A stretch of DNA of 45,201 bases, taken from Escherichia phage PC2. The notes below the pieces were generated by a model, which searched no databases, was not told where the DNA came from, and saw only the letters and a program-made list of their open reading frames with translations. Of this stretch, positions 1-38,372 are shown one piece after another (the stretch's first letter is position 1; every line of letters starts with the position of its first letter). The DNA is taken from sequence record NC_073088, one strand, 5' to 3'. Both the position numbers and the translations under genes were made by a program.

Positions 1-2292
1 ATGAAAGACTTCGAACGCCTTTTTCTCGATACCGAGACATTTAGCGGGGTGGACCTGAAGAAAGTGGGCGCATACGCCTACGCAGAGCACCCAACAACCG
101 AGATTATGATTTGCACCTACGCCATCGACGAGGGCCGCGTGCAGACATGGGATTGCACCGAATCCCCCACAATGCCGCGTGAACTGCGCAAGGCGCTCCG
201 CCGGGTGTCCCGCAAGAAAGCAAAAATCGTGATGGCTAACGGCCTCCTGTTTGACCGCCTGGTTATTCGCGAGAAGTGGGGCATTGACCTGCCAGTGTGC
301 CAGATCGAAGATACCATGATTATGGCCTTTCGACACGCGTTGCCGGGTAGTCTCGATATGCAGTGCCAGGTGCTGGGCGTTGACGCAGACCACGCGAAGG
401 ATAAGGCGGGCAAGGCGCTGATCAAACGATTCTGTAAGCCAACCCCTAAGACCTACAAAATCCGCCGCTACACGCGCGAGACGCACCCCGAGGAGTGGGC
501 TAAATTCCTGCGCTATGCCGCGTTGGATATCATCGCTATGAGGGAAGTCTATTGGCGCATACCGGACTGGGGCAACACGCCGAAGGAAGATGAAATCCTG
601 CTTATTGACCAGATGATTAACGACCGCGGCTTCTATGTGGACGTTGACCTGGCTAACGCCGCGATCAAAGCGGTGCAGGCGCATAAGGAAGAATTGAAGG
701 AAGAAGCGTGGGAGCGCTTCGGCGGTAAGCTGACCGGCAATGACTTTCTGCCAGCGCTGCGCGACCTCGCGCCTGCGTTCACGATCCACAACGCGCAGAA
801 ATCCACACTTAACGACCTGCTGGAAGACCCAGACTTCCCCGACGAGGGAAAAGCGCTTATAGAAATGCGCCTCGGGGCATCATCAACGGCATCGACTAAG
901 TACAATCCGCTCGTAAACGGGCTGTCTTCCGATGGTCGCCGTCGTGGGTGTCTCCAGTATGGCGGGGCAAAACGCACGCTACGCTGGGCGGGCAAAGGCT
1001 TCCAACCGCAAAACCTGGCGCGCGGCGAGTATAGCGACGACCACGAAGGGAAGATTAAGCGCCGTGATGGCGAAAGCGACGTCTCGTTTTGGGTGCGGTC
1101 GCACATGCTTACCAACGGCATCAACTCCCTGTTACGCGGGACCGCACACTGGGCGTATGACATATCGAAGTTAACGGCCTCGACCGTTCGCGGGTGCATT
1201 ATTCCGGCTAAGGGCAAGAAGTTTGTCGTAGCGGACTATTCCAACGTGGAAGGCCGCGGGCTTGCATGGATCGCTGGCGAGAAAACCGCGCTAATGGTGT
1301 TTAATGCCGATCGAGATATCTATTGTGAAACTGCCGGTAAGATGTTTGGCCTCGACCCGGAATACATCAAAGCCAACCGCAAAGACTTACGCCAGATCGG
1401 TAAGGCGTGTGAATTGGGACTGGGTTATGGCGGCGGCGTGGCGGCGTTCTTGCAGTTCGCTAAAAACATGGGTCTAGACCTGTATGCGATGGCGGACGTC
1501 ATGAAGGGTACATTCCCCGATCATATTTGGGCCGCGGCGAAACGTGGTTATGAGTATGCCCGCATTAACGAAGCTAAGCGCCCGCCGAAGCCTGGCAAGA
1601 AAGACGAGCGCCCAACTTACATACTGCCGAAAAACGTATGGCTGACGTGTGATGCGATCAAACGTATGTGGCGCGAGTCGCACCCGAAGACGGTAGCATT
1701 TTGGGCTGAACTGGAAGACGCGGTGCTCTGCGCGATCCGCAATCCGGGCAAAGCGTACTGGGCTGGCGCGAACGTTCGCCCGGATGGCAAGAAAGCGCTC
1801 AAGATAGTCCGCACGAAGGCGAAGCACGACCCAACCTTCGACGAGGAGCGCGACGACCCGAACGCCGCGGGGTGGTGGTTGAAAATTGAGTTACCGTCGG
1901 GGCGCATCATGAGCTACCCCGGCATCGCGCTGTCTGTCACGACCGAGATCGACGAAGACACCGGCAAGAAGCGCACCAGCACCCGCATTAAATATCAGGG
2001 TGAGAATCAGACGACGCGCCAGTGGGGATTCCAGTACACCTACGGCGGCAAACTGACGGAAAACATCGTGCAGGCTCTGTGCCGCGATATCCTCGCATGG
2101 TCCATGCCGGGCGTTGAAGCCGCAGGGTATGAGATCGTACTGTCCGTACACGATGAACTGATAACCGAAGTGCCGGATACCGACGACTACACAACCGAGG
2201 AGTTGTGCGCGCTGATGTGCGACCTGCCGGTTTGGGCGAAAGGCTTCCCGCTTGCAGCGGAAGGCGACATTATGTACAGGTACAGGAAATAA
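1..2292 (+). CDS. Family A (Pol I / T7-like) DNA polymerase with N-terminal 3'-5' exonuclease domain
   Basis: 763-aa ORF; N-terminal exo motif LFLDTETFSG; polymerase-domain motifs resembling T7 gp5 (QIGKACELGLGYGGG, SVHDELITEV). ATG at position 1. Confidence 0.9.
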   Translation: MKDFERLFLDTETFSGVDLKKVGAYAYAEHPTTEIMICTYAIDEGRVQTWDCTESPTMPRELRKALRRVSRKKAKIVMANGLLFDRLVIREKWGIDLPVCQIEDTMIMAFRHALPGSLDMQCQVLGVDADHAKDKAGKALIKRFCKPTPKTYKIRRYTRETHPEEWAKFLRYAALDIIAMREVYWRIPDWGNTPKEDEILLIDQMINDRGFYVDVDLANAAIKAVQAHKEELKEEAWERFGGKLTGNDFLPALRDLAPAFTIHNAQKSTLNDLLEDPDFPDEGKALIEMRLGASSTASTKYNPLVNGLSSDGRRRGCLQYGGAKRTLRWAGKGFQPQNLARGEYSDDHEGKIKRRDGESDVSFWVRSHMLTNGINSLLRGTAHWAYDISKLTASTVRGCIIPAKGKKFVVADYSNVEGRGLAWIAGEKTALMVFNADRDIYCETAGKMFGLDPEYIKANRKDLRQIGKACELGLGYGGGVAAFLQFAKNMGLDLYAMADVMKGTFPDHIWAAAKRGYEYARINEAKRPPKPGKKDERPTYILPKNVWLTCDAIKRMWRESHPKTVAFWAELEDAVLCAIRNPGKAYWAGANVRPDGKKALKIVRTKAKHDPTFDEERDDPNAAGWWLKIELPSGRIMSYPGIALSVTTEIDEDTGKKRTSTRIKYQGENQTTRQWGFQYTYGGKLTENIVQALCRDILAWSMPGVEAAGYEIVLSVHDELITEVPDTDDYTTEELCALMCDLPVWAKGFPLAAEGDIMYRYRK

Positions 2293-2570
2293 TGACACCA
2301 GAAGGCAAGGTCCAAACTCACTTGATGAGACGGGTGAAAGAGGTTGGCGGATTCTGCCGTAAAGTGGCGTGGGAGGGGCGCGCAGGTGCGCCCGATCTGA
2401 TCATCATCATCAACGGCAAGATAGTTTTCGTCGAAGTGAAGCGCCCAGGCGGTAAACCTAAGCCGCACCAGGTACGAGAACATGAGCGAATGGCCCGCCG
2501 CGGTGCGGACGTTCGCGTTATCGACAGCATAGCCGACTGTGATTTATTGGTTGCTGAATTGGTCGCGTAG
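2292..2570 (+). CDS. VRR-NUC family nuclease (PD-(D/E)xK fold)
   Basis: 92 aa; motif GAPDLIIII...VFVEVKRPGGKP (D...E.K); start ATG overlaps polymerase stop (TAATG); AGGA upstream. Confidence 0.7.
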   Translation: MTPEGKVQTHLMRRVKEVGGFCRKVAWEGRAGAPDLIIIINGKIVFVEVKRPGGKPKPHQVREHERMARRGADVRVIDSIADCDLLVAELVA

Positions 2571-2579
2571 CGGTATAGT
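2551..2579 (+). promoter_or_regulatory. Candidate promoter (TTGCTG-N17-TATAGT) inside the 3' end of the VRR-NUC gene
   Basis: Hexamers read directly; preceded by TTGGTTGC as in other promoters here. Confidence 0.4.
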
Positions 2580-2610
2580 GTGCCGGTTAGCCATATCGAG
2601 GATTTTAGAG

Positions 2611-2784
2611 ATGATTGAAGAAAAACGTTGCAGTAATTGCGGCTGCGTTAAACCGCTATCCCAGTTCCATAAATACACCGGTAAGACTGCGCGAAGCCCG
2701 GACGGGTATCGGGCAGAGTGCAAATCGTGCCGCAATAAAAAAGAGCGCGAACGGCAGCGCCGCTACCGCGCAGCGCAAAAATAA
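2611..2784 (+). CDS. Small Cys4 zinc-ribbon protein
   Basis: 57 aa with CSNCGC...CKSCRNKK; RBS GAGGA 7 nt upstream of ATG; terminator follows. Confidence 0.45.
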   Translation: MIEEKRCSNCGCVKPLSQFHKYTGKTARSPDGYRAECKSCRNKKERERQRRYRAAQK

Positions 2785-2791
2785 TTAATAC

Positions 2792-2815
2792 GGCGGGCTT
2801 GTCCCGCCATTTTTG
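2792..2815 (+). terminator. Intrinsic terminator
   Basis: GGCGGG-CTTGT-CCCGCC followed by ATTTTTGG, right after the zinc-ribbon ORF stop. Confidence 0.7.
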
Positions 2816-2827
2816 GGAGACATGACG

Positions 2828-3046
2828 ATGAAAGAACATTACCGACTCACCAAGCTGGGCGAATGCAAACCAGGCGATCGCGTATGGTTTATTGCGGGCA
2901 TGAATGACCCGCTGCCGTTGACGGTATGCTGGCAAAAATTTAAGAGCTTCCGGGCGACGGGTGTGCACATCGGGCACCGCACCAACTACGACGCCACAAA
3001 AAGGAACTGGAACAGTGAAACCGAAGTCTGGAAAAAGGCGGAATAA
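2828..3046 (+). CDS. Hypothetical protein
   Basis: ORF after GGGAGA RBS; start chosen at ATG 2828 (the ORF track opens at TTG 2813). Confidence 0.35.
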   Translation: MKEHYRLTKLGECKPGDRVWFIAGMNDPLPLTVCWQKFKSFRATGVHIGHRTNYDATKRNWNSETEVWKKAE

Positions 3047-3050
3047 AGAT

Positions 3051-4475
3051 ATGGCACGTTTCCGACGTCGCGAATATCAGAAGTTGATAACCGCGTTCAT
3101 CCTCAAGCATAAGCGCTGCAATATTTGGGCGACAATGGGGTCGGGTAAAACCGGCGCGACCATGTGGGCGCTGAATAAAATGTTCCAGACCGGCATCCTG
3201 TCCAACCAGGAGGACCGCGTACTGGTGCTTGCCCCGCTGCGCGTCGCATCGGGCACATGGCCCCCGGAACAAGAAAAATGGCGCTTCCCCGCCCTGCTGG
3301 TAGTAGACGGCACCGGGTCAGAGAAGGACCGCATCGCTGCGCTTGAGAGCGACGCTAACGTGGTTTGTGTTAACTATGATGTGGTTGAGTGGCTTGTTGA
3401 GTATTGCGGCGACGAGTGGCCCTTTACGGTCGTTGTTGCCGATGAATCCACTAAGCTGAAAGGCTACCGCAGCAAGCAGGGGAGTAAGCGCGCCCGCGCC
3501 CTGGCGGCGATCGCACATAAGCGCGTCAAGCGCTGGATTAACCTTACCGGCACACCCGCACCAAACGGGCTGAAAGACCTATGGGGTCAGACGTGGTTTG
3601 TCGACGGTGGCGAACGCCTCGGCAGTAGCTATAAGGCATTCACGGATCGCTGGTTTATTAGCAAGCCTGTTAAGCCTGGCAGCTTCACTATGCAGCACGC
3701 CCCGCTAAAGAACTCCGAGAAGGAGATCCAACAACGCCTGTCTGACGTATCCCTTACCGTTGACGCGGCTGAATACTTCGGATGTGACAAGCCAATCTAT
3801 ACTCCGGTTGTTGTGGACCTGCCGAAGAAAGCCCGCAAGATTTATGACCAGTTCGAAGCGGAGCTATTTGCCGAACTGGAAAGCGGAACGGTGGAGGCGG
3901 CGAACGCTGCTTCGAAGACTATTAAGTGCCTTCAGCTTGCTTCCGGGGCCGTGTATAAAGTCGACGAAGACGGCGAGCGCACCGACGAATGGGTGAAAAT
4001 CCACGACGCTAAACTGGACGCGCTGGAAAGTATCGTGGAGGAGTTGAACGGCGCACCGCTGCTCGTCGCGTACCAGTACAAGCATGACCTGGCGCGTCTC
4101 AAGAAGAAATTCCCTCACGGCGTAGCGATGGGTAAGGGTAAGCAAGGCAATAAGGATATGGAAGCGTGGAACAGGGGCGAGATCCCCATCATGTTCGCGC
4201 ACCCGGCATCGGCGGGTCACGGCCTTAACTTGCAGGATGGCGGACACCACCTTGCCATCTTCTCAGACACCTGGAACTATGAGCATTTTTCGCAGATTGT
4301 GGAGCGTATCGGGCCGGTTCGCCAGATGCAAGCCGGACACCCTCGTCCGGTATTCGTCTACATTATCCAGGCGCGTGGCACACTGGATGAACTTGTCGCC
4401 GAGCGTCGCGACAGTAAGCGGGATATTCAGGACGACTTGATGGAATACATGAAAGCTAAAAAGGCACGCAAATGA
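3051..4475 (+). CDS. SF2 (SNF2/DEAD-like) DNA helicase
   Basis: Walker A GSGKTGAT, motif II VVVADESTKLK, C-terminal motif HPASAGHGLNLQ. Start set at MARFRRREYQ; an alternative GTG start at 2961 exists. Confidence 0.8.
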   Translation: MARFRRREYQKLITAFILKHKRCNIWATMGSGKTGATMWALNKMFQTGILSNQEDRVLVLAPLRVASGTWPPEQEKWRFPALLVVDGTGSEKDRIAALESDANVVCVNYDVVEWLVEYCGDEWPFTVVVADESTKLKGYRSKQGSKRARALAAIAHKRVKRWINLTGTPAPNGLKDLWGQTWFVDGGERLGSSYKAFTDRWFISKPVKPGSFTMQHAPLKNSEKEIQQRLSDVSLTVDAAEYFGCDKPIYTPVVVDLPKKARKIYDQFEAELFAELESGTVEAANAASKTIKCLQLASGAVYKVDEDGERTDEWVKIHDAKLDALESIVEELNGAPLLVAYQYKHDLARLKKKFPHGVAMGKGKQGNKDMEAWNRGEIPIMFAHPASAGHGLNLQDGGHHLAIFSDTWNYEHFSQIVERIGPVRQMQAGHPRPVFVYIIQARGTLDELVAERRDSKRDIQDDLMEYMKAKKARK

Positions 4476-5182
4476 CTATTGCTAAAATGACAATCTGGTC
4501 ATTATTTGACGGCAGCGGCTTGATGATTGAGCGTGCTGCCGAGATGGGGCATAAGTGCTATTGCTTCAACTACTCCGAAGCCGATCACGGGTCGTACCTG
4601 GACTACCGGATCTATGGGCGCGGTATCCGATATCGTAATGAGTTTATCGATCTGGACTTCGTAGACCGCGCGATGAATGGCGATTTCGGTACGCCGGATA
4701 TCATCTACGCATTCCCGCCGTGTACGGATCTGGCGGTTAGCGGTGCGCCAGCGTTCCCGCGCAAACGCTCCCGCGACCCTGCCTTCCAGCTTAAGGCGGT
4801 GCGCACCGCGAAGATCGCCGCTTACCTGGGTGATTTCTTCGAAGTGCCATATATGATTGAGAATCCGCGCAGCGTGCTATCAACTCAATGGCGTAAGCCG
4901 GACCACTCGTTTGACCCGTGGGAGTATGGCGGATATCTGCCGGAGGATGACGTGCACCCGTTATTCCCGGAATACATCAACGCCCGCGATTCATATCCGA
5001 AGTTGACCTGCTTATGGACCGGCAACGGCTTCCGTATGCCAGAGAAGAAACCTGTTTTCGTTGAAAAAGGGTACTCGAAGCAGTATAGTCGCCTCGGAGG
5101 CAAATCAGCCCGCACAAAATTAATCCGGTCGCTCACCCCGCGCGGCTTCGCGATAGCGGTTAACGAGGAAAATTTAAAATGA
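4472..5182 (+). CDS. DNA (cytosine-5)-methyltransferase-like protein, short, no obvious target-recognition domain
   Basis: 236 aa; motif I-like SLFDGSGL, motif IV-like AFPPCTDLAVSG (PCT in place of PCQ), motif VI-like MIENPRSVL (ENP in place of ENV). ATGA overlap with helicase stop. Confidence 0.55.
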   Translation: MTIAKMTIWSLFDGSGLMIERAAEMGHKCYCFNYSEADHGSYLDYRIYGRGIRYRNEFIDLDFVDRAMNGDFGTPDIIYAFPPCTDLAVSGAPAFPRKRSRDPAFQLKAVRTAKIAAYLGDFFEVPYMIENPRSVLSTQWRKPDHSFDPWEYGGYLPEDDVHPLFPEYINARDSYPKLTCLWTGNGFRMPEKKPVFVEKGYSKQYSRLGGKSARTKLIRSLTPRGFAIAVNEENLK

Positions 5183-5502
5183 ATACTGCATTCGACGCCA
5201 TCGACTTTTCAGTGGCAATGACCAATCAGCTTTTTTCCTACGACAGCAAGACCGGCGTCATTCGCCTGAAGTCAACCGGCTGCAAGATTGGCAACCTCAA
5301 TACTGCCGATGGCGGTACTCGTATCGAATGCAACGGCAAGACGCTGTCTGGCGCACGCGTGGCGTGGATTATCGCGACCGGCAATACAATCCCACCAGGC
5401 TTTGCCGTTGTGTGCCGTCAGCGCACGCCAGGCCATTACGGCAACCGGATCAGCAATCTCTATTTGGTTGACGTAGCGCGCGATCCTAACTTTTATGCGT
5501 AA
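5179..5502 (+). CDS. HNH_3/NUMOD-like homing-endonuclease-related protein, probably degenerate
   Basis: 107 aa; pattern ...GY..IECNGKTLSGARVAWIIATGNTIPPGF...NRISNLYLVD resembles the HNH_3 layout but lacks the usual His residues; ATGA overlap with upstream stop. Confidence 0.35.
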   Translation: MNTAFDAIDFSVAMTNQLFSYDSKTGVIRLKSTGCKIGNLNTADGGTRIECNGKTLSGARVAWIIATGNTIPPGFAVVCRQRTPGHYGNRISNLYLVDVARDPNFYA

Positions 5503-5507
5503 ATTGG

Positions 5508-5536
5508 TTGCATAATCATATTGGTTGCATTATATT
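5508..5536 (+). promoter_or_regulatory. Sigma70-type promoter (TTGCAT-N17-TATATT) with two TTGGTTGCAT copies
   Basis: Hexamers read directly; TTGGTTGCAT at 5504-5513 and 5521-5530. Confidence 0.55.
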
Positions 5537-5538
5537 TA

Positions 5539-5563
5539 GGGTGTCCGGTCGGACGCCCTTTTT
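5539..5563 (+). terminator. Terminator-like hairpin plus T5 tract overlapping the start of the 5508-5536 promoter transcript
   Basis: GGGTGTCCG..CGGACGCCC followed by TTTTTAAT, 20 nt before the RBS of ORF 5583. Confidence 0.5.
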
Positions 5564-5582
5564 AATACCTGGAGACAACACG

Positions 5583-6047
5583 ATGAAAATTTTACAAGAA
5601 GAGAAAAATTACTGGGCCGCGCAATGCCTCGAAGCCCGCGAACAGGCCGAACGTGCGAACGCGCTGGCGGATACCTACCTGTCAAGCTATGAAACGGAAG
5701 AAAAGCGTCGCATAGAGTTAGAGGAGCGCTTCGAACTGCTTTTCGAACTGATGGGGATTATGCAGCGCACCGGATACACCACCAGCGTTGCACTAAACCG
5801 CGTCACCGCCGAAGGTCTGCGCGAGCACTGTAAACGTGCGGAGGAGTACGTGCGACCGAAGGGTCGCCAGTCTAAGGTTGACCGGAAAGACCTTGTGCTT
5901 ATGGCGTGGCGCAACCCTACAAACGGCAGCTTCTACCCGGACGCGCGCCCGCTTAGTGCTGAGGAGTCAAAGCGCGTGCAACGCATTCTCAAAACCGGCA
6001 ATAAAATCGCCCTGTATGCGATAGACACCGACCATGCGGAAGAGTGA
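5583..6047 (+). CDS. Hypothetical protein (predicted coiled-coil N-terminus)
   Basis: 154 aa after RBS GGAGA (7-nt spacing); sits downstream of promoter 5508-5536. Confidence 0.5.
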   Translation: MKILQEEKNYWAAQCLEAREQAERANALADTYLSSYETEEKRRIELEERFELLFELMGIMQRTGYTTSVALNRVTAEGLREHCKRAEEYVRPKGRQSKVDRKDLVLMAWRNPTNGSFYPDARPLSAEESKRVQRILKTGNKIALYAIDTDHAEE

Positions 6048-6519
6048 GCAAAAAGATAGCTGGCGCACGCCGCCAGCTTTATTTAAACCGCTGCGCCGAA
6101 AGTACCGATTCCGTTATGACATGGCGGCGAGCGATGCCAACCACCTGCTACCGCGTTACTTCACGGCGGAGCACAGCGCGCTAGATGTGGACTGGTCAGA
6201 GTTGAAAGGGTGGAAGTGGTGCAACCCACCGTATTCCGATCCGCTGCCGTGGGTCGAGTGCGCAGCGCATGGACGTCGGACCGTCATGCTACTGAATCAG
6301 GATACGTCGACTAAGTGGGCGAAACTGGCCCGGAAGACTGCAAACCTGATAATTCTTCTGGACTGGCGTATCCGATTTATTCACGCTGTAACTGGTGAAG
6401 TCGGGCCTAGCAATAACAAGTGCCAGCAATTGATAATCTTCGACGAAGCGCTACCCTTCGGCGGCGCACAAATTGAAATAATGAGCGAAGGAGAACTCCT
6501 TGAATATCTTAATCGTTGA
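6034..6519 (+). CDS. Phage Dam-like DNA N6-adenine methyltransferase
   Basis: 161 aa; WRTPPALF...DMAASDANHL...WCNPPYSD (NPPY catalytic motif), typical of phage orphan Dam methylases. Confidence 0.75.
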   Translation: MRKSEQKDSWRTPPALFKPLRRKYRFRYDMAASDANHLLPRYFTAEHSALDVDWSELKGWKWCNPPYSDPLPWVECAAHGRRTVMLLNQDTSTKWAKLARKTANLIILLDWRIRFIHAVTGEVGPSNNKCQQLIIFDEALPFGGAQIEIMSEGELLEYLNR

Positions 6520-6724
6520 CCGCGACCCCGCGGTAGTAGACCAAATGCAAAAAGACTACGGTATTGACCCGCGACGCGATCGAGTGGTGCGCGCGTCTCG
6601 CCACGAATACATCATGGGCCTTGACCTCACCGGTTGGCTTGTCATGACTCAGCGTTGCCATTTCGTGTGCAACTCCTTTACTGCGCGAAGTGCCCGTTAC
6701 ACCCTTATTGAGAGTTTAAAATGA
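6500..6724 (+). CDS. Hypothetical small protein
   Basis: 74-aa ORF with non-ATG start after AAGGAG; start uncertain. Confidence 0.3.
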   Translation: MNILIVDRDPAVVDQMQKDYGIDPRRDRVVRASRHEYIMGLDLTGWLVMTQRCHFVCNSFTARSARYTLIESLK

Positions 6725-7191
6725 AATTATTGATTTGCGATTTGGATGGCGTTATTAACGGTTCAAGCGATGCGCGTGCCGACCTGGTACCTGGGATAAA
6801 AACTAAATCCACCTTTTGGGCGAAGTGGCACAAAGCGCACGTCCGCGAAGACCTGAACATGGATATGCTGCCGTTGTTGCGCATGTATAAAGAGCAAGGC
6901 TTCGAGATCGCGTATCTGACCAACCGGCAGCGTGAATGTTGGGACACCACCGCGGAGCAATTGAAGGTCTTCCCAGTAGGCCGGTTGTTTATGCGCCACA
7001 TGCTGGACGACACCCCGCCGCCTGAGTTTAAGGCGTGCGCCGTGTTCAAAATGGTCTGTTACGCGGACGTGTCTGAACTGGTCATCATTGAAGATTGCGA
7101 GAAGAACATCGCGGCAATTCGTCGGGTGTGTGGTGATTTGGTCCCGAAAATTTACGCAATAAACGTTGCAAAATTCACTTGCAACCAATAG
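6721..7191 (+). CDS. HAD-superfamily phosphatase-like protein (possible polynucleotide 3'-phosphatase or nucleotidase)
   Basis: N-terminal HAD motif I LICDLDGVI; ATGA overlap with upstream stop. Confidence 0.55.
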   Translation: MKLLICDLDGVINGSSDARADLVPGIKTKSTFWAKWHKAHVREDLNMDMLPLLRMYKEQGFEIAYLTNRQRECWDTTAEQLKVFPVGRLFMRHMLDDTPPPEFKACAVFKMVCYADVSELVIIEDCEKNIAAIRRVCGDLVPKIYAINVAKFTCNQ

Positions 7192-7208
7192 GTTGGTTGC
7201 ACTATAGT
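7179..7208 (+). promoter_or_regulatory. Sigma70-type promoter (TTGCAA-N18-TATAGT) containing a 9-bp-arm palindrome
   Basis: TGCAACCAA-TAGG-TTGGTTGCA at 7180-7201 lies in the spacer; overlaps the HAD gene stop. Confidence 0.5.
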
Positions 7209-7254
7209 AAACGTGTCGGGGGCAATACAGCCCCCTCACTAAAAGGGTAATACT

Positions 7255-7809
7255 GTGAAAGCATACGAATACTGCAAAAACGCCGCCACCACTATGGAAC
7301 AGCGCGGGAAAGAAAACGGCTATGACAACGCGAAAGAAGAACGCAGCGCTAAACAGGTCGCCGCCGTGTTTAACGCGCTTACCGGGCGCGACCTTACCGA
7401 GCAAGAAGCCTGGACCTTCCTGATCTGCCTGAAGCTGGTGCGCCAGCACCGTAAGCACCAGGAAGATAACATCGTGGATCTGGTGGCGTATGCCGCCCTG
7501 CTGGGCGAGTCTTACATGACAGTACATGACGAGATTCAGATCGATACAACGGCAGCACAATTCGACAGCCTCAAAGGTCTGTCCGTGCGCCTGGACGGCG
7601 AGATTAATGCGTATAACAGCGCAATTCGCGTTGCAGAGGACACGGTAGCCTCGTTCGGCAAGACGGTTAAGGCCCGCGATTTTGGAGTTGAAGCCCAGGA
7701 CGTCCAGCCTATGGTCGTGCTCACCGGCGAAGACGGATCGAAAATCTGCATGACGCAGGAAGATTTCCGTAACATGGAAAAAACACTGGTGACTGGCGCA
7801 CTTAAATAA
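7255..7809 (+). CDS. Hypothetical protein
   Basis: 184 aa; GTG start after promoter 7179-7208 and a GC hairpin. Confidence 0.45.
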   Translation: MKAYEYCKNAATTMEQRGKENGYDNAKEERSAKQVAAVFNALTGRDLTEQEAWTFLICLKLVRQHRKHQEDNIVDLVAYAALLGESYMTVHDEIQIDTTAAQFDSLKGLSVRLDGEINAYNSAIRVAEDTVASFGKTVKARDFGVEAQDVQPMVVLTGEDGSKICMTQEDFRNMEKTLVTGALK

Positions 7810-7850
7810 TTTAATCGCGGGCTTCAGCCCGCATCAATGAGGGATTCACA

Positions 7851-8426
7851 ATGTACGGCGAATATGAAATAACCGGTAAACAATTCCACCTGGCGGCAAT
7901 GATTGCAAGCATCGAGTTTGAACAGTGGCGCTTAAAGTCTGACGCGTGCAAGCAAAGCAGACTCGTCGGTGTGCTGGGCGAAATGTTTGCGGGCATGTAC
8001 CTCGAAGGGCAGGCGGGCGGTCGTAGCTGTATCCCACAAGGCTTGCTTATGCGTACCGGCCTGTTTAGCGCTAACACTATCGACCGCGGCGATATTATCA
8101 TGGTTGGCAAGCGCAAGGTTAAGTCCGGTCCTGATTTCCGCGAGCATACGATCGATGCCGTATGGACATACGAGGTTAAAGCCACCAGCGGCATCCGTCG
8201 CGGACTGGTAGAGGCCCGTTGCGCTCGCGAGTATCTGACCCGTCGCGTTGCCGGTGTTATCCTGGTGGGCGTAGATTTCGGACAACATAGCGCGCACGGT
8301 GTGATTGAGGATATAGCAGAGCCATACGTGATCGTGAACGACTGGCCTTTAGTGGAAGTTGACGGTAAGGAATACTACGAAAGCCCGCTGGTGCGGCGCA
8401 AAATGGATTGGGAAAACTCAAACTAA
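7851..8426 (+). CDS. Hypothetical protein (possible PD-(D/E)xK-like nuclease)
   Basis: 191 aa; RBS GAGGG; weak D...E.K pattern (GDIIMVGKRK...WTYEVKAT); followed by a bidirectional terminator. Confidence 0.45.
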   Translation: MYGEYEITGKQFHLAAMIASIEFEQWRLKSDACKQSRLVGVLGEMFAGMYLEGQAGGRSCIPQGLLMRTGLFSANTIDRGDIIMVGKRKVKSGPDFREHTIDAVWTYEVKATSGIRRGLVEARCAREYLTRRVAGVILVGVDFGQHSAHGVIEDIAEPYVIVNDWPLVEVDGKEYYESPLVRRKMDWENSN

Positions 8427-10884: not shown

Positions 10885-10904
10885 AGCTAAATCCTCGTAA
10901 TTGG

Positions 10905-10932
10905 TTGCATTCCTGGTTGAGCGGTGTAATAC
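10905..10932 (+). promoter_or_regulatory. Candidate promoter (TTGCAT-N16-TAATAC) for the lipoprotein cassette
   Basis: Preceded by TTGGTTGCAT (10901-10910). Confidence 0.45.
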
Positions 10933-10963
10933 TAAAACTCAACCAAATATAGGGGATGATACC

Positions 10964-11185
10964 ATGAAAACTTTAATTATGATTTGTGCGGTTCTTTTGT
11001 CCGGTTGCGCCGTAGAACGCAACAACGGCGATTGCGTTACGGTTGCTTACGGTAGCTGCATGTTGCGCTACGTTGACGGGCAAAAAGTCCCGGCAGGAGA
11101 TGTAGACATGCGATTCACTGGGCTGTCATCCGATAGCGACGGCAACTTCTCAGGCACAGTATCAGTTAAATCACGGGAGTGGTAA
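10964..11185 (+). CDS. Small lipoprotein (candidate superinfection-exclusion, Cor/Llp-like)
   Basis: 73 aa; signal peptide with lipobox LLSGC; opposite strand to the tail genes, between tail fibre and J; own promoter at 10905-10932. Confidence 0.6.
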   Translation: MKTLIMICAVLLSGCAVERNNGDCVTVAYGSCMLRYVDGQKVPAGDVDMRFTGLSSDSDGNFSGTVSVKSREW

Positions 11186-11187
11186 TA

Positions 11188-12153
11188 ATGGGCGCTGGAA
11201 TACTTATCGACTATAACGACGGCAGGCCGGTAATGGAGATAACCGCGGGACTCCGCGCTCCGTCATACTGCACCAGCTTTAACCAGCGGGCACAGTCCAA
11301 CAAGACGCTAACCATTAACACCCCGCTTACGGAGGGGTCACAGGTCGTCGTCGCGCTCACTCGCCCGGTAGAGGTGATTGAAGTGTTCGACCAGACCCTG
11401 GTAATACCTGATCCGTTTTACGTTACGTCGGTTACTCGCAACGGTAATAGTGGTATCACCCTGCGCGGGGATGATGCGTATGGCGCGTACTCAGGTTTAC
11501 CACAATGGGCGGGCGTAATAATGGAAGTGCTGCCGGTTGGGTCGCGCAACGCGGGCTTGCTGGTGGCGAACTCGACTGACTTCACGGCAATATCCAACGT
11601 GGCAAAGCTGATGACCTGCCGATACGCGAAGCGTGTGCGCGTCAACGGGAGTATGACCTTGCCAGTTAGCGGTGTCCCGTTCGCCCGCTGGGATGACGGC
11701 AATGTATCAGTAGGCTTCGATGGCGGCAGTATTATCGTCCGCAACGCGTCCTATGGTGGTATCGACGATGTGGCGGCTTCGGTGGACATGGACCTTGTAA
11801 TATTCAACAACACGCCACCCACTCCGGGGGCGGGTATCACCATGACGAACAACCAGAATCAGGTCACGTTCTCGACCGTGAACAAGCCGTTCGTATATGA
11901 CCGCACTATTAACCTCGGAACGGGCGACCAGAATATTGGAAACAGCCTGATCCAGCTTTCATACACCGGCGCGCTGATTCAGAACAACGGAGGCTATAAC
12001 CACGTCCGCATGAACGGTATTCGCATGGCGGGTAATAATGTGCGTGTTGCCAAAAACCGCGTCATCGGCAACTACTCGCGGCAGCAATTCCAGATGCCAG
12101 GTAAAAATATTGCAGTACCAACACCGCTACTCGTCATCCCGAATATGTATTGA
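11188..12153 (+). CDS. Beta-rich, Asn/Gly/Thr-rich protein of unknown function (candidate receptor-binding or exclusion-associated protein)
   Basis: 321 aa; start ATG after GGGAG RBS, 2 nt after the lipoprotein stop; fibre-like composition; followed by a GGGGCC hairpin. Confidence 0.5.
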   Translation: MGAGILIDYNDGRPVMEITAGLRAPSYCTSFNQRAQSNKTLTINTPLTEGSQVVVALTRPVEVIEVFDQTLVIPDPFYVTSVTRNGNSGITLRGDDAYGAYSGLPQWAGVIMEVLPVGSRNAGLLVANSTDFTAISNVAKLMTCRYAKRVRVNGSMTLPVSGVPFARWDDGNVSVGFDGGSIIVRNASYGGIDDVAASVDMDLVIFNNTPPTPGAGITMTNNQNQVTFSTVNKPFVYDRTINLGTGDQNIGNSLIQLSYTGALIQNNGGYNHVRMNGIRMAGNNVRVAKNRVIGNYSRQQFQMPGKNIAVPTPLLVIPNMY

Positions 12154-21036: not shown

Positions 21037-21104
21037 TATGCAGTCCCCCTTTTTATGCAGTTGCCGTCGGTCATTGTATCAGCGAATTTAAAACAAACCT
21101 TATT

Positions 21105-21270
21105 CAGTCTCAGACGAGGGGGGCCAATGACCCCCGTCTAGTCTGAAAGACTGGGCTTTGTCCCGCCTGTCCCGATCGGCTAAAACCAGCGGCAGCACTG
21201 GCGGGGACAGGGGTGCTGTCCCGCTTTGTCCCGACCCATTCTGTCCCGCTTTTTGTCCCGCTTACTTTAT
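21105..21270. repeat. Copy A of the 166-bp GTCCCGC-repeat / hairpin element
   Basis: Aligns block-for-block with 38166-38331; contains the perfect palindrome GCGGGACAG-GGGTG-CTGTCCCGC and six GTCCCG units. Confidence 0.85.
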
Positions 21271-21300
21271 GCACGAAAACTGAATAGATATTCACATTTT

Positions 21301-26986: not shown

Positions 26987-27016
26987 TTGCATTGCGAATG
27001 TTGGTTGCAGTATATT
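26987..27016 (+). promoter_or_regulatory. Sigma70-type promoter (TTGCAT-N18-TATATT) for the moron cassette, with overlapping palindrome
   Basis: Hexamers read directly; ATTGGTTGCACACCAAC at 27014-27030 overlaps the -10; AT-rich upstream region. Confidence 0.55.
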
Positions 27017-27051
27017 GGTTGCACACCAACAGAGATATGAAGGAAGACAAA

Positions 27052-27366
27052 ATGACTAACATGACCGTAGCAACTCCAGTAGACGCCGCAATGGCCCGTT
27101 TCAATAAAGCTACCGTAGCGAATACCTTTACCTTTCACGCAATGCGTAACGCGGAAGCGCTGAATCTGTGCCAGAGCATGAATGCTTCTGAAGCGGCAAA
27201 AGCGGCGATCAACTCCGCGATATTCGATAATCCGGCTTGCGGCCTGGTTCCGGCATCTTTCATAAACGCCCTGGTCGAAGCCTTTAACGATTTCATGTGC
27301 GTCGATGCCGTTGAAGCTGTATGTGCCCGCTTAACTTCCACCGGTGGCAACATCAAATTCAACTAA
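27052..27366 (+). CDS. Hypothetical protein, moron gene 1
   Basis: 104 aa; RBS GAAGGAAG; own promoter 26987-27016; plus strand inside the minus structural arm. Confidence 0.5.
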   Translation: MTNMTVATPVDAAMARFNKATVANTFTFHAMRNAEALNLCQSMNASEAAKAAINSAIFDNPACGLVPASFINALVEAFNDFMCVDAVEAVCARLTSTGGNIKFN

Positions 27367-27420
27367 ACCAATCGGGGGCGAAAGCCCCAATAATGAGGAC
27401 ACAAAAATGAGGACACAAAA

Positions 27421-28185
27421 ATGAGACTGACAAAAGACATTAAAAATCAGATTCTGGCTAACATCCTGCGCGACCACGAAATCGCAACCGAAGCCAAACA
27501 AATCATGATGGACTCACGCGACATGGCGTACGCAATCACGCTGGACTGTATGCCGGACGGCATTCGCACATTCGCCGCGCTACGCGAGCATATCCTGTTA
27601 ATCCGCGATGACCAGTCGCAGATGTACGGCGTCAGCATATACACCAACAAGGCGACGTATAGTTATAACTCCGACCGCCCGAAGGGTATCGGCAGCGTCT
27701 ATGACGCCACCTTTGAAATCAACGCAGGCGGCAATGTTCGCACCTTGTCATTGAGCGGCGACGGTCGCCAACACCGCATACATCGCGGGTACTGGGAAGA
27801 GAAATATATGAATAAGCTCGCGCCTGATCTCGGCGATATCGTTCCGGGGTTCGAGACAGTTATGCTCGCGTCAGTGTGCGAAGTGGACGAGGACGGGAAA
27901 GCGCTGCCGATATATCTCCCACGCGGTCGCGTAGACTACCCAGCGGATCATGATTTCTGTAAGCGCCTGGACCGTAACGACCAGGCCCGCCGCGAGTTGC
28001 GCGCGAAGTATGACGCGTTCAAACTCACCGTTACCGGTGTACTTGACCTGCACAATACTGACAAGAAGCTGATTAAGGCATGGCCTGAAGTCGAGCAATT
28101 CATCCCGTACCCGGACAAGCAAAAATCCACGGCGGTGGCGCTGGATGTGAAAACACTCAACGAGATTTGCGGCATTCCGCGCTAA
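27421..28185 (+). CDS. Hypothetical protein, moron gene 2
   Basis: 254 aa; no motif recognised; followed by a hairpin at 28191-28211. Confidence 0.55.
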   Translation: MRLTKDIKNQILANILRDHEIATEAKQIMMDSRDMAYAITLDCMPDGIRTFAALREHILLIRDDQSQMYGVSIYTNKATYSYNSDRPKGIGSVYDATFEINAGGNVRTLSLSGDGRQHRIHRGYWEEKYMNKLAPDLGDIVPGFETVMLASVCEVDEDGKALPIYLPRGRVDYPADHDFCKRLDRNDQARRELRAKYDAFKLTVTGVLDLHNTDKKLIKAWPEVEQFIPYPDKQKSTAVALDVKTLNEICGIPR

Positions 28186-33306: not shown

Positions 33307-33519
33307 TTAAACGTCGCGCCCGTAGTATCGGGTTAACATGCTTTGCACTTCGCGTATAGCGCCCTCTGTGTAGCGTATTTGCGACAGTATCTCGATTCGC
33401 TCATCCATCGACATACCGACTGCCGCTGCCGTTCGTTCGAATCGGCGCAAGCCTTCGAGTTGTTTGCGTAGTTCTTTCAGGCGGGTGGCCTGCGTGCTCA
33501 TGAATACTTGTCTGATCAT
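33307..33519 (-). CDS. Hypothetical small protein
   Basis: 70-aa ORF; ATGA overlap with the upstream metallophosphoesterase gene. Confidence 0.4.
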   Translation of the reverse strand: MIRQVFMSTQATRLKELRKQLEGLRRFERTAAAVGMSMDERIEILSQIRYTEGAIREVQSMLTRYYGRDV

Positions 33520-34658
33520 TTCAACATTTCCGGGCTAATGGTTAAGCGCGCTACTTCGCCGTAGTTGGCGCTGTAGGTAATGACGTTGGCACTGCGACCG
33601 CTCATCCAGCCGCCGCGGCTGGCGTAGGCGTCTTTCGCTGCTAGCGTCCTGTGCTGTTCGACAATCATGTTGCGAGACTCGACAATCTTCTGGTGGTGCA
33701 AATGGCCTACGTGCGCGTAGCTGTATTCGCTAGACCCGAATGCCTGTCTAAATTTAGCGATCATAACCTGCTCGATAACATCGAATCGCGCTTTGTGCCC
33801 GTGGTGGAAAAACAGCGTGGTCTTACCGTGCTGCACCATTTTGTAGACGTCCGGGGACGTGTCCACATCGACGCGCGGCTCGTTCTCATACAGGGTATTG
33901 AACATCTCAGCAAGCAAAATCATACCCGATTCGTCATGATTACCCTGGACTATTAGCAGTTTGACTTTGTGGTGTTTTTGCAGCGCCAGGTCTACCACGT
34001 TGCGCACCATGCGGATCATGTAGCGGACTAACTTCTGATATCGGGTGTCGGCGTCCAGTACGTGACCGCTTGCCGGGGTGACTGCATCCAGGCTATCAAA
34101 GTGGGCCATATCCCCGAGGATATTGATAACGGCAGTGCCTGCGTCCGGTGCGCGGGCGAAGGCTTCGACAAACCAGCGGTAGAACAGGTCTTCGGCAATC
34201 GCCATATCCCAGTCTTCGCCAGTCTCCTCACCCCATGCCAGCATTCCCAGGTGAAAGTCTGACACGGTGTACAGGTTGAGCAAGTCGAGCGCCTGGATCG
34301 GTACTGGCGGGGCGTTTACAGGCGCTGCCGGTGTGATTTCGCTGTTCATACCCTCGACAACAGCGCGCATAGCTTCGAGTTGGCGCTCCTTGTCCTGCTC
34401 AGTGATGACCCACGACATGACCTCTTCGCCATTTCCGCGCACCAGGGCCGATACGCGCTTAACCCCAAAACCATCGGCAACGCGCTTACGGATCACGGCA
34501 TCATTGCCGTGACCAATTCCCTTTTTCGACAGGCGGGCTTTGCGCATATAGACATTGCGCATGGCAATCCCGTATTTCTTCGCAATCTCTTTAACCGTAG
34601 TCCCTGCCTGAATTTCTGCGATCAATTGCTCATCGGTAATTTTAGTTTGCGGGTGCAT
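33516..34658 (-). CDS. Helix-turn-helix domain fused to a calcineurin-like metallophosphoesterase
   Basis: 380 aa; N-terminal HTH (TVKEIAKKYGIAMRNVYMRKARL); phosphoesterase motifs VSDFHLG, GDMAHFD, VQGNHDE, HHGH, GHLHH. Confidence 0.7.
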   Translation of the reverse strand: MHPQTKITDEQLIAEIQAGTTVKEIAKKYGIAMRNVYMRKARLSKKGIGHGNDAVIRKRVADGFGVKRVSALVRGNGEEVMSWVITEQDKERQLEAMRAVVEGMNSEITPAAPVNAPPVPIQALDLLNLYTVSDFHLGMLAWGEETGEDWDMAIAEDLFYRWFVEAFARAPDAGTAVINILGDMAHFDSLDAVTPASGHVLDADTRYQKLVRYMIRMVRNVVDLALQKHHKVKLLIVQGNHDESGMILLAEMFNTLYENEPRVDVDTSPDVYKMVQHGKTTLFFHHGHKARFDVIEQVMIAKFRQAFGSSEYSYAHVGHLHHQKIVESRNMIVEQHRTLAAKDAYASRGGWMSGRSANVITYSANYGEVARLTISPEMLK

Positions 34659-34680
34659 ATTTAATTAATTCCTGATTAGT

Positions 34681-34706
34681 GGACCGTGGACAATATACCA
34701 CGGTCC
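34681..34706 (-). promoter_or_regulatory. Perfect 9-bp inverted repeat (GGACCGTGG-N8-CCACGGTCC) in the leader of the HTH-phosphoesterase gene
   Basis: Read directly; lies between a 26-aa hydrophobic mini-ORF (34720-34800) and the ATG at 34658. Confidence 0.4.
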
Positions 34707-34829
34707 GTATGGCGGCGGGCTATATCAATTCGCAAATAACCATGCCGATAAAAGCCGCGGTGGTCCAGATCGCTAATACCCAAATATCATTACGTGCCAT
34801 CTTGATTACTCCTCTCGTTGATTGGTCGC

Positions 34830-34859
34830 AGTATGGCGTCTATGTTGGTTGCGAGTCAA
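34830..34859 (-). promoter_or_regulatory. Candidate sigma70-type promoter (TTGACT-N18-CATACT) for the mini-ORF / HTH-phosphoesterase operon
   Basis: Minus-strand hexamers read directly; immediately downstream of the terminator at 34868-34895. Confidence 0.35.
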
Positions 34860-34867
34860 GCAATAAA

Positions 34868-34895
34868 AAGCCCGGAATTAACCGGGCTTAATTGT
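34868..34895 (-). terminator. Intrinsic terminator closing the lysis operon (hairpin flanked by T-rich tracts on both strands)
   Basis: GCCCGG-AATTAA-CCGGGC; minus strand continues TTTTTATTG, plus strand continues TTAATTGTTT. Confidence 0.7.
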
Positions 34896-35063
34896 TTACG
34901 CTGCGGGGCCGGATTCCGTCTGCGGTGGTGGGCTTGGCAGCTTCGCATCGAAGACGCCTGCATGGCTGATAGTGTCCGCGATGATAGCGCGTGCGCCGGG
35001 GTCTTCGGTTTTAGCCAGCGCGGCGAGCGCGTCGGCGTTATGATCAAGAATGCTTTTTAACAT
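34896..35063 (-). CDS. Small ORF between endolysin and terminator
   Basis: 55 aa (MLKSILDHNADALAALAKTEDPGARAIIADTISHAGVFDAKLPSPPPQTESGPAA); RBS GAGG about 9 nt upstream; not in the ORF track (<60 aa). Confidence 0.3.
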   Translation of the reverse strand: MLKSILDHNADALAALAKTEDPGARAIIADTISHAGVFDAKLPSPPPQTESGPAA

Positions 35064-35079
35064 ACTGTGTTACCTCGTA

Positions 35080-35571
35080 TTATGCAGCGTTACGCCCGAT
35101 CTTCTCGGCAACGTCCCACTGCTTACCATCAAACAACGCCTGTCTGCCGATTGCACGGCGTACCAGACCCTTAAGCACTTCCCCGCCTTGCTTGCGGAAC
35201 TGCGGCAGAGTAGCACGGACCTTCGCCCAGTCGCCCAGTCGCACCGCATCATCGAAATCATTCGCGATGTTATCCGGTACGATCGGACCTTGACCGGCAT
35301 TGATTACCAGGTCCACCAGCGCGTCGAATTGCGCCTGGTTAATGCTCGGATGTGCGTATTTGTTCACCCAGTCCTCGGCATACGCCACATCTCGCTTGAG
35401 CAGTTCCAGCGCTTCCGCACGGGTAATGCTTCGAGGCGGGTTAGTGCCGGTATGACCATAACCCCAGGTGTACAGGCCGCGGGCCTGCTCTTTCTTAGTC
35501 GCGAAATACGGCACTGGGCTGAAAGTCTCCCATGCTGCCGTAAATCGTAGACCGTTATCACTGAATCGCAT
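35080..35571 (-). CDS. Endolysin, T4 lysozyme-like (GH24 family)
   Basis: 163 aa; motif GLRFTAAWETF...YTWGYGHTG parallels T4 lysozyme [21 protein letters not shown]; directly after the holin-like genes. Confidence 0.85.
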   Translation of the reverse strand: MRFSDNGLRFTAAWETFSPVPYFATKKEQARGLYTWGYGHTGTNPPRSITRAEALELLKRDVAYAEDWVNKYAHPSINQAQFDALVDLVINAGQGPIVPDNIANDFDDAVRLGDWAKVRATLPQFRKQGGEVLKGLVRRAIGRQALFDGKQWDVAEKIGRNAA

Positions 35572-35803
35572 GTTTTACCCCATTCAAAACAGCATTACGC
35601 AGGGTGCGCAATGCAAACAGCCAGATTAACGCGGTCCAGGTGGTATCAGATACGTCTCCTGTTTGCAACAATCCGATAAGACAGATCATTGCCGTTAACA
35701 GATACAGCACCCGGCCTAAGATACCATCCTGAACGGACGGCGCATATACGTTAAACAGGGACGAAGCCCCGATGATAACAAACAACAGGACGGAGATAAT
35801 CAT
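35558..35803 (-). CDS. Holin / antiholin-like small membrane protein
   Basis: 81 aa with 2-3 predicted transmembrane segments; ATGA overlap with upstream holin; overlaps endolysin start by 14 nt. Confidence 0.5.
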   Translation of the reverse strand: MIISVLLFVIIGASSLFNVYAPSVQDGILGRVLYLLTAMICLIGLLQTGDVSDTTWTALIWLFALRTLRNAVLNGVKHAIQ

Positions 35804-36090
35804 TTTGCACCCCCCGGAAGTCGGAACGACGCAATAGTCTCCCTGATCCGGTCGGCGATTGGCATCCAGAAGATTGCGGTTACGAAGCCCAAACCGGCGA
35901 CAGTGCGCTCACCCGACAAACCAGCCCACTCGGCAATAGCCGGTGCGCCAAATATGGCACACAGGAAGCCAACTACAACATACAAAACGAAGTTTAGCGG
36001 CCCCTTCGTAGCCTCACCATGAATGCGTGCGCCTACGAAGCCACCCGCCAGACATGCCAGGGCGAATAGCCACTCGTTTAGCTTATCCAT
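35800..36090 (-). CDS. Holin
   Basis: 96 aa with about 3 hydrophobic segments and a charged C-terminus; first gene of the holin-endolysin block. Confidence 0.55.
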   Translation of the reverse strand: MDKLNEWLFALACLAGGFVGARIHGEATKGPLNFVLYVVVGFLCAIFGAPAIAEWAGLSGERTVAGLGFVTAIFWMPIADRIRETIASFRLPGGAK

Positions 36091-36142
36091 AAAAAAGTCC
36101 CAGTAAGTTTTAGCTCACTGGGACTATATCACGCTTGCATAA

Positions 36143-36442
36143 TTAATCGAAAATGGACCACTTGCCGACGCCTTTCCACTCCCACCCGGATGACCGGACG
36201 GCTTCGAATGTTCGACCGCCTATCATATCCCGATACCACAGCCACCACATGCGCAACCGGGTCGGGTGCTCCGTTATTCCACGGCGCTTGTAGATCTCGA
36301 ACGTCATGCGGGTAATGCTGGCTGCTTCCACGGCGGGCCATACTACGAACAACAGGACGACCAACAGCACCGCGGTAAGCAGGCACAGCCCGCAGACCAA
36401 ACCAAACCAATAAATCACATCATGAATCATAATCTGCCCCAT
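36143..36442 (-). CDS. Small membrane protein of unknown function
   Basis: 99 aa; N-terminal transmembrane helix (VIYWFGLVCGLCLLTAVLLVVLLFVVW). Confidence 0.45.
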   Translation of the reverse strand: MGQIMIHDVIYWFGLVCGLCLLTAVLLVVLLFVVWPAVEAASITRMTFEIYKRRGITEHPTRLRMWWLWYRDMIGGRTFEAVRSSGWEWKGVGKWSIFD

Positions 36443-36649
36443 AGGTATTTAACCAGACTAATAACAGCCGCCAACAACACCAGGGCCGCCAGACTACCGC
36501 CACATACTACCGCGAAGACGTATAGCATCGAATTGCCCCTTCCGGTTTGCCAATATGGCGCGCCCATGCACGCGCCACGAAGTAATTGCGAAATACCCGA
36601 CCGCCTATCTCAAAGCGGTTGTGCTGAAGCATATCGCGGATCGTCGCAC

Positions 36650-37613: not shown

Positions 37614-37622
37614 TTTGGCCCC

Positions 37623-37949: not shown

Positions 37950-37977
37950 TGTTCAGTCCTCTTGTTGGTGTGCAACC

Positions 37978-38331: not shown

Positions 38332-38372
38332 TCAGTTTTATTGCATAACTATTCACTATATTTACACTACAC

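Follow-up and report, generated by a model that had tools for sequence, protein, structure and literature searches.

The DNA around position 5504 carries two copies of a nine-base sequence, TTGGTTGCA, within a predicted sigma-70 promoter, and the question arises what such a motif does there. The original prediction, based on the recurrence of the motif at other candidate promoters, was that it marks one promoter class, possibly recognised by a phage factor together with the host RNA polymerase. We followed this up in the window, i.e. the whole stretch of 45,201 nucleotides from Escherichia phage PC2 (NC_073088), which is a near-complete genome (45.2 kb) of a Dhillonvirus (HK578-like) siphophage. 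It shares about 94% identity with Escherichia phage vB_EcoS_SD276 (20 kb compared), to whose record it is the reverse complement, and it starts with the start codon of the DNA polymerase; well over a hundred further Dhillonvirus records also match it. The gene layout was transferred from the gene calls of SD276 (Table 1).

The motif is strongly over-represented. As proposed in the original prediction, we counted it against shuffled sequence: TTGGTTGCA occurs in 11 exact copies compared with an expectation of 0.42 for dinucleotide-shuffled sequence, and in 100 shuffles this number was never attained. If one mismatch is allowed, 25 copies are found versus 12 expected. The exact copies start at 5504, 5521, 7180 (-), 7193, 10901, 27001, 27015, 37971 (-), 38002 (-), 41225 (-) and 37418 (+), and copies with one mismatch are located at 2547 (TTGGTTGCT), 34845 (TTGGTTGCG) and 38094, 38373 and 38408 (TTGGTTGCC). 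All coordinates listed originally turned out to be correct; new are the exact copy at 37418, the copies at 2559 and 34822 (TTGGTCGC), those at 44113 and 44129 (both on the minus strand) and, at 41048, a variant that forms a palindrome, TTGGT-N5-ACCAA. This palindrome is present three times (0.05 expected), in two cases, at 27015 and 37965, as a normal copy with an ACCAA extension, whereas the one at 41048 reads TTGGTCATTAACCAA. Furthermore, an unbiased scan returned the 8-base core TTGGTTGC, with 20 copies in the window, as the third most enriched 8-mer in the window, in SD276 and in HK578. When viral contigs were scanned for paired copies, at least 120 unrelated and uninformative matches were obtained, and a search of Rfam gave no matches.

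The copies are largely restricted to the DNA between genes. After small conserved open reading frames had been added to the gene list, 15 of the 20 copies of TTGGTTGC were fully intergenic, although intergenic DNA makes up 7.6% of the genome (binomial P about 2e-13), and the motif is thus clearly commoner between genes than within them. Among intergenic 7-mers TTGGTTG ranks first; of its 22 copies, 17 are spread over nine intergenic regions. Two further copies of TTGGTTGC are part of promoters that reach into the last ~25 nt of the upstream gene, and three are located deep in genes (16358, 19706 and 37418), where about two are expected by chance. The copy at 37418 is antisense to a conserved open reading frame; it is probably a chance occurrence, or one whose use is not evident.

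Two other sequences are repeated in the window. Of the E. coli Chi sequence GCTGGTGG there are 12 copies, three on the plus and nine on the minus strand (1.4 copies expected), and these could shield the phage DNA against RecBCD. The sequence G[CT]TGCCGT was found in 49 copies (GCTGCCGT 26 versus 2.5 expected, GTTGCCGT 23 versus 2.4 expected), most of which are within genes and have ACGGCARC as their coding-strand sequence. The Kagunavirus-like E. coli phage hz69 is enriched likewise, and this is probably a codon or dipeptide effect.

Reading of the individual sites supported the predicted link between motif and promoters. The copies fall within ten predicted sigma-70 promoters, whose hexamers are 17-18 nt apart and each of which faces a correctly oriented gene (Table 1). 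A promoter has been annotated in HK578 at the same place as P7, and the -10 hexamer of P8, TAGATC in the window, is TAGATT in most relatives. A generic promoter scan detects only P3, P7 and P9 among them, because TTGCAT fits just three of the six consensus positions. At P2 a terminator hairpin overlaps the predicted start; since it begins two bases past the -10 hexamer, transcripts from P2 would not contain the 5' arm of the stem and would escape termination.

Table 1. Gene blocks, predicted promoters, motif copies and candidate regulators in the window. Promoters and terminators are predictions; gene blocks follow the gene calls of SD276.
Feature	Position	Strand	-35	-10	Spacer (nt)	Motif copies and remarks
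Replication and nucleotide genes	41437-45201 and 1-8426	+
Structural genes	8458-33210	-
hyp53/hyp54, lysis, small proteins, primase-helicase, small HTH protein	33307-41033	-
Two islands within the minus-strand block	10964-12153, 27052-28185	+
P1, upstream of gp35/hyp33/helicase	2547-2579	+	TTGCTG 2551-2556	TATAGT 2574-2579	17	TTGGTTGCT 2547-2555 (+) supplies -35; TTGGTCGC 2559-2566 in spacer
P2, upstream of hyp29/Dam methylase	5504-5536	+	TTGCAT 5508-5513	TATATT 5531-5536	17	5504-5512 (+) over -35; 5521-5529 (+) in spacer, adjoining -10
Terminator hairpin overlapping predicted P2 start	5538-5559	+				Ends upstream HNH operon
P3, upstream of hyp26/hyp25	7179-7208	+	TTGCAA 7179-7184	TATAGT 7203-7208	18	Reversed copy 7180-7188 holds -35; forward copy 7193-7201 adjoins -10
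P4, upstream of lipoprotein-like ORF and hyp23	10901-10933	+	TTGCAT	AATACT 10928-10933	17	10901-10909 over -35; TG precedes -10; plus-strand island amid minus-strand late genes
P5, upstream of hyp7 and Nmad5 protein	26987-27029	+	TTGCAT 26987-26992	TATATT 27011-27016		27001-27009 in spacer; 27015-27023 across -10/start, extended to palindrome TTGGTTGCACACCAA (27015-27029); second plus-strand island
P6, upstream of hyp45	37965-38010	-	TTGCAT	TAGATT 37983-37978	17	38010-38002 (-) over -35; 37979-37971 (-) extended to palindrome TTGGTTGCACACCAA (down to 37965)
P7, early rightward, toward hyp42 through DNA polymerase	41213-41241	+	TTGACT 41213-41218	TAATAT 41236-41241	17	41225-41233 in spacer, reversed
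P8, upstream of single-strand DNA-binding protein and DNA polymerase	44100-44137	+	TTGACC 44100-44105	TAGATC 44123-44128	17	44113-44121 in spacer, 44129-44137 past -10, both reversed
P9, upstream of small ORF, hyp53, hyp54	34822-34859	-	TTGACT 34859-34854	CATACT 34835-34830	18	34845-34853 in spacer, 34822-34830 just past -10, both reversed
Terminator upstream of P9	34889-34868	-
Promoter of candidate regulator gene	41048-41093	-	TTGACA 41093-41088	TAGTTT 41070-41065	17	Near-consensus
Palindrome TTGGTCATTAACCAA	41062-41048	-				Two bases past -10 of regulator promoter, just before ribosome-binding site
Exact copy in conserved 89-residue ORF (37344-37613, -)	37418-37426	+				Antisense to ORF
Longer variant CATTGGTTGCC	38092-38102	+				Conserved
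Longer variant CATTGGTTGCC	38373-38383	-				Conserved
Longer variant CATTGGTTGCC	38408-38418	-				Conserved
109-residue protein, candidate binder	40704-41033	-				Long helix and C-terminal HTH
hyp53, second candidate	33516-34658	-				N-terminal HTH and metallophosphoesterase

The gene calls of the closest record do not include three small reading frames. One encodes a cysteine-rich basic protein of 58 residues with a CxxC...CxxC pattern (2611-2788, +), for which PHROG returned zinc-binding regions of the Lar-like and endonuclease VII types. Another reading frame, of 73 residues, is lipoprotein-like (10964-11185, +), and the third, located right after P9, would encode a hydrophobic peptide of ~26 residues (about 34716-34796, -; read by eye from the alignment, so that the coordinates are approximate).

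The copies have no common place within the promoters. The original proposal that TTGCAT serves as -35 element at sigma-70 spacing is in agreement with the copies at 5504, 10901 and 38002, each with 17 nt to a good -10 hexamer, and TTGCTG at 2547 and TTGCAA at 7180 likewise can serve as -35 before a good -10, but this does not apply everywhere. In detail, a forward copy supplies the -35 at P1, P2, P4 and P6, and TTGCA-type -35 hexamers occur in other arrangements at P3, inside a reversed copy, and at P5, as a separate TTGCAT. The copies at 5521, 7193 and 27001 fill the spacer and adjoin the -10, and those at 27015 and 37971 overlap both the -10 and the start site. At P2, P5 and P6 the second copy occupies the spacer beside the -10 or spans -10 and start. 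Finally, the copies at 34845/34822, 41225 and 44113/44129 (P9, P7 and P8) are reversed and accompanied by a separate and stronger TTGACY -35 hexamer. The distance from motif start to -10 is therefore 27, 15, 10 or -4 nt, and five copies are reversed. If the first base of the -10 hexamer is taken as -12, all promoter-linked copies fall between about -39 and +11, and at the ten predicted promoters none was found upstream of about -39.

The same picture emerged from a comparison of orthologous regions taken from three full genomes and from IMG/VR contig loci. Across 12-18 related genomes the copies are near-invariant, whereas the spacers between them drift: in eight regions, identity to the window is 98% for the motif columns, of which 76% are invariant, compared with 87% and 45% for the other intergenic columns (Mann-Whitney P = 4e-15, Fisher P = 6e-13, both ignoring the shared ancestry of what is a shallow genus). 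Both copies of P1 are kept in 13 distinct sequences. At P2 the 7-nt gap between the conserved copies varies freely, at P4 the first copy is conserved and the degenerate TGGTTGAG repeats are not, and at P6 a 17-nt spacer is almost randomised between two copies that are fixed together with the -10. P7 has undergone a 1-nt indel between -35 and motif that leaves the distance from motif to -10 unchanged. P9 varies in its spacer and in the loop of the terminator, and changes in the terminator stem are compensated, while the copies are kept, the second one tolerating T, C or A at one position. Copies can also be turned around, as the second copy of P3 is inverted in place in one contig (L033), and the entire spacer after TTGACG is taken up by a pair of abutting reversed copies in two diverged contigs (L021 and L022). 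Beyond the motif, P3 and P5 (7165-7208 and 26975-27016) share an upstream stretch, GCAAAATTC[A/G]CTTGCA, which suggests that one promoter is a duplicate of the other.

An element that is read by RNA polymerase or a sigma-like factor should hold its position and orientation, and the motif does neither; moreover, relatives flip and rearrange copies while these still remain within the promoter. Therefore, a single promoter class in which the motif extends the -35 cannot be maintained as proposed. The confinement of the copies to the polymerase footprint, their presence in either orientation and in one to three copies per promoter, and their free rearrangement in evolution point instead to an operator of the occupancy type, i.e. 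a repressor site. Three other readings of the sites were rejected. A sigma-54 promoter needs GG and GC at -24/-12, and here the two doublets are separated by 4 nt if both are in one copy and by 18-21 nt if they are in different copies; an extended -10 element was ruled out on spacing or conservation; and a role at the RNA level, for which a UUGGU-N5-ACCAA hairpin would be possible at the 5' end at P5, P6 and the regulator promoter, was dismissed because most copies are upstream of the predicted start.

There are also predicted promoters in the window that do not contain the motif, which fits a motif that marks some promoters and not all of them. According to our sequence reading, an extended -10 element, TGTTATAAT, near 33262 precedes terS, and the scaffold gene is preceded by a predicted TTGCGA-16-TAATAT promoter (-) near 26950, which has no internal copy, the copies of P5 being ~27 nt upstream. 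A third promoter of this kind is predicted at 41106 (+) in the early control region. The stretch from 41106 to 41205 (+), which begins with TTGAAA-17-AATAAT and an upstream TG and contains a strong terminator hairpin with a run of nine T ~65 nt past the likely start, is highly conserved in the genus and without a match in Rfam; it may encode a small RNA of the early control region.

Taken together, we consider it moderately probable that the motif is the operator of a dispersed regulon, in which one phage DNA-binding protein mainly represses early and middle promoters; the leading candidate for this protein has 109 residues and a predicted promoter at the early control region. A trans-acting factor of the phage, as originally suggested, is the likely reason for the motif. 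We infer the promoters, the binding, the identity of the binder and the repression from the sequence, and the direction of regulation, which would mainly be repression, from the geometry of the sites. The operator would be the short asymmetric sequence TTGGTTGC(A), often after an A and sometimes extended to TTGGT-N5-ACCAA, and would be recognised by one sequence-specific phage protein. About ten sigma-70-type promoters would each contain one to three copies in their core and would drive the non-structural (early and middle) units and the two antisense islands inside the late operons. The regulator would be made from its near-consensus promoter at the early control region, and with its accumulation it would fill the copies within the polymerase footprint and turn these promoters down, including its own. 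As the islands behind P4 and P5 face late minus-strand operons, their late silencing might avoid head-on transcription. Two features of repressor regulons are found in the window, namely a site at the promoter of the regulator itself, where TTGGTCATTAACCAA follows the -10, and a repeated conserved site that overlaps the polymerase footprint at ten predicted promoters. On the other hand, late-gene control is left unexplained if nearly all non-structural promoters are repressed, and the predicted promoters with TTGCAT as -35, which matches three of six consensus bases, fail the generic scan.

When 21 small or unassigned proteins were scanned against Pfam and PHROG, two with a helix-turn-helix (HTH) emerged as candidates for the binder. 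In Pfam the 109-residue protein matches HTH_23, HTH_28 and Sigma70_r4_2 above the cut-offs, and it reaches 16.1 bits for GerE (cut-off 23.5). The structural model (mean pLDDT 85) consists of a short helix, a 54-residue helix (residues 26-79) and the C-terminal HTH. Foldseek matched the HTH only, to domains of the LuxR/GerE/NarL and transposase types over 34 residues, at E values of about 0.4-1 that are not significant. The gene directly precedes that of the primase-helicase. Only 24 homologues were recovered in a search of 5.8 billion proteins, and the matches in the phage collection are nearly all from Escherichia, Shigella or Dhillonvirus records; the few under the names Sodalis, Campylobacter, Acinetobacter and Salmonella are near-identical sequences.

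The motif is present in every related genome examined, including HK578, whose protein is 38% identical overall, and the C-terminal 65 residues of the protein are almost invariant wherever the motif is invariant. HTH domain and motif alike are near-invariant in all 24 homologues and the two diverged contigs, so that covariation between protein and site yields no informative variation. The HTH proteins of these contigs (L021 and L022) are 60% and 73% identical to that of the window, and the HTH gene there has a canonical copy between its -10 and its ribosome-binding site. At the regulator promoter TTGGTCATTAACCAA is kept in most relatives; HK578 has no operator at this place, though it retains the motif. 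The N-terminal ~45 residues of the protein are hypervariable and sometimes replaced across relatives, which suggests diversifying selection or module exchange.

Phage hz69 (L004) shares the replication module, but it contains only one copy of the motif and has a different small HTH gene at the position of the 109-residue gene. This phage has a promoter repeat of its own, TTGCACACCCCAATATAATAGGGTACTATTC (~33 bp), at 21784, 30680, 41108 and 42517, in a fixed arrangement that differs from the flexible motif of the Dhillonviruses. The second candidate, hyp53, belongs to a widespread family and was first discounted because its homologue in the practically motif-less hz69 is 75% identical overall; it is kept as a possible binder because the recognition helix of its HTH differs in hz69. 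We rank the 109-residue protein first, above hyp53, and rate this specific assignment as somewhat less likely than not.

Of the other explanations, the one that survives best is an activator or a dual factor, which would assist or replace region 4 of sigma-70 at the TTGCAT promoters (P1, P2, P4 and P6) and, as a dual factor, would repress the TTGACY promoters (P7, P8 and P9), resulting in a switch from early to middle transcription. This is in line with the two promoter architectures, a weak -35 from a forward copy versus a strong separate -35 with reversed copies, with the match of the candidate protein to Sigma70_r4_2 and with the position of P7 and P8, where the block of replication genes begins. 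However, a protein bound to the additional copies of P2, P5 and P6 should hinder the polymerase, no copy is found near the classic activator positions -41.5 or -61.5, a partner like AsiA or MotA was not found among the proteins scanned, and TTGCAT in combination with a -10 hexamer that matches five of six positions can function unaided. We therefore regard an activator or dual factor as rather unlikely.

A related possibility, which we rate lower still and consider unlikely, is that a small protein resembling sigma region 4, with a hypervariable N-terminus, reprogrammes the sigma-70 polymerase of the host at one motif. At the weak TTGCAT hexamers it would replace or assist sigma region 4, and in the spacers of the TTGACY promoters its 9-bp site would block the polymerase, so that one protein and one motif would make up the early-to-middle switch of a virulent siphophage without a polymerase of its own. 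The variable N-terminus would then reflect an arms race with host defences or with the host polymerase.

The operator could also be bound by a protein of E. coli that the phage would exploit, for example a CytR-like member of the LacI family, a regulator of the GntR family or a nucleoid protein. Host proteins of the CytR and GntR types tolerate varied site arrangements, and we take GTTGCATT, present in some copies, to resemble the CytR octamer and TTGGT-N-ACCAA, presumably, the palindromes of the GntR family. But the invariant bases are ATTGGTTGC, and the bases that complete the CytR octamer, i.e. the positions after GCA, vary among sites and genomes, on which ground a CytR operator was rejected. 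As hz69 infects E. coli and has a similar gene module with a single copy, and as the motif tracks a genus-restricted phage protein, a host protein seems distinctly unlikely.

Three copies of the longer variant CATTGGTTGCC converge on an iteron-rich repeat of ~200 bp at 38161-38356, and a convincing -35/-10 pair was not found at any of the three. The repeat occurs a second time 17 kb away, at 21100-21295 (79-97% identical), and is packed with TGTCCCGC iterons; 13 of the 15 genome copies of this 8-mer are in or beside the two elements. The primase-helicase gene is closely followed by one element, and the other falls within the block of tail genes. The arrangement recalls the two-site ori/crr of phage P4, and by this analogy the repeats may be replication origins or an enhancer.

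It is conceivable that the motif serves in replication or another DNA transaction, for example as binding sites of an origin-binding or helicase-loading protein or as recombination hot spots at module borders, and the convergence of the extended copies on the repeat at 38161-38356 and the location of the candidate gene directly before the primase-helicase would fit such a role. We nevertheless assume that this is very improbable, as no copies accompany the second repeat at 21100-21295 and most copies lie between -35 and -10 hexamers genome-wide; for homologous exchange, nine bases would be too short. The least credible explanation is a fixed cis element of one promoter class, read by a polymerase with a phage-modified or phage-encoded specificity subunit, which can hardly be upheld, because the start of the motif exactly 27 nt before the -10 at four promoters is opposed by the other distances, the five reversed copies and the rearrangements in relatives, and because no recognisable sigma factor or RNA polymerase is among the proteins scanned.

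If the motif is indeed a repressor operator, it provides a map of about ten probable promoters, most of which generic scans miss owing to their weakly matching -35 hexamers, together with a testable pair of regulator and operator. Dhillonviruses are common E. coli phages that are part of the BASEL collection, are candidates for therapy and are used in studies of defence systems, and a short portable operator might be used for engineering these phages or for building reporters. In the searchable literature we found no publication on the timing of Dhillonvirus transcription, no mapped 5' ends and no description of the motif or a regulon (searches for the motif string and for promoters or transcriptomes of Dhillonvirus, HK578 or SSL-2009a, which gave only primers and unrelated papers), and two Dhillonvirus genome papers do not discuss promoters. 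The proposed phage operator regulon has not been described previously, but conceptually it is an ordinary repressor-operator system, which confirms a familiar logic and does not change the view of phage regulation.

Parts of this logic are known from several systems, of which the C1 repressor of phage P1, lambda Cro and KorA/KorB of plasmid RK2 are closest in function; no homology to C1, Cro or the Kor proteins was detected. The T4 MotA box is similar in that a phage motif replaces a poor -35 at promoters of the host polymerase, which comes near to the original proposal; it is located at about -30 in one orientation and needs AsiA, whereas position and orientation vary here, and since MotA/AsiA homologues are absent among the 21 proteins scanned as well, a MotA-type middle promoter was rejected. 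The C-terminal HTH of the candidate has its best, though weak, fold matches in the LuxR/GerE/NarL group (GerE remaining below threshold), and NarL and GerE also use short sites that vary in number, spacing and orientation. However, the candidate lacks both a receiver and a ligand domain, and we do not assign it to the LuxR/GerE family. KorA and KorB of the IncP plasmid RK2 are small autoregulated repressors with one operator that recurs in many promoters and so allows coordinated control; they are plasmid proteins unrelated to the candidate, with palindromic operators and some sites that act at a distance. Lambda Cro is likewise a small early HTH protein made from a strong early promoter in a divergent control region, and it turns down early promoters and its own via operators that overlap -35 and -10, as we propose here. 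Its 17-bp pseudo-palindromes are found at two loci, compared with about ten loci and mostly asymmetric sites in the window, and no match of the candidate to Cro was found in sequence or fold. Phage P1 has a short asymmetric C1 operator that is scattered over the genome, single or paired, direct or inverted, and overlaps the promoters of separate units, and the motif described here is likewise dispersed, asymmetric and promoter-overlapping. P1 is temperate and its C1 repressor of 283 residues recognises an unrelated operator of 17 bp, whereas the virulent Dhillonvirus would achieve a similar distribution of sites with a core of 8-9 bp and an HTH protein of 109 residues.
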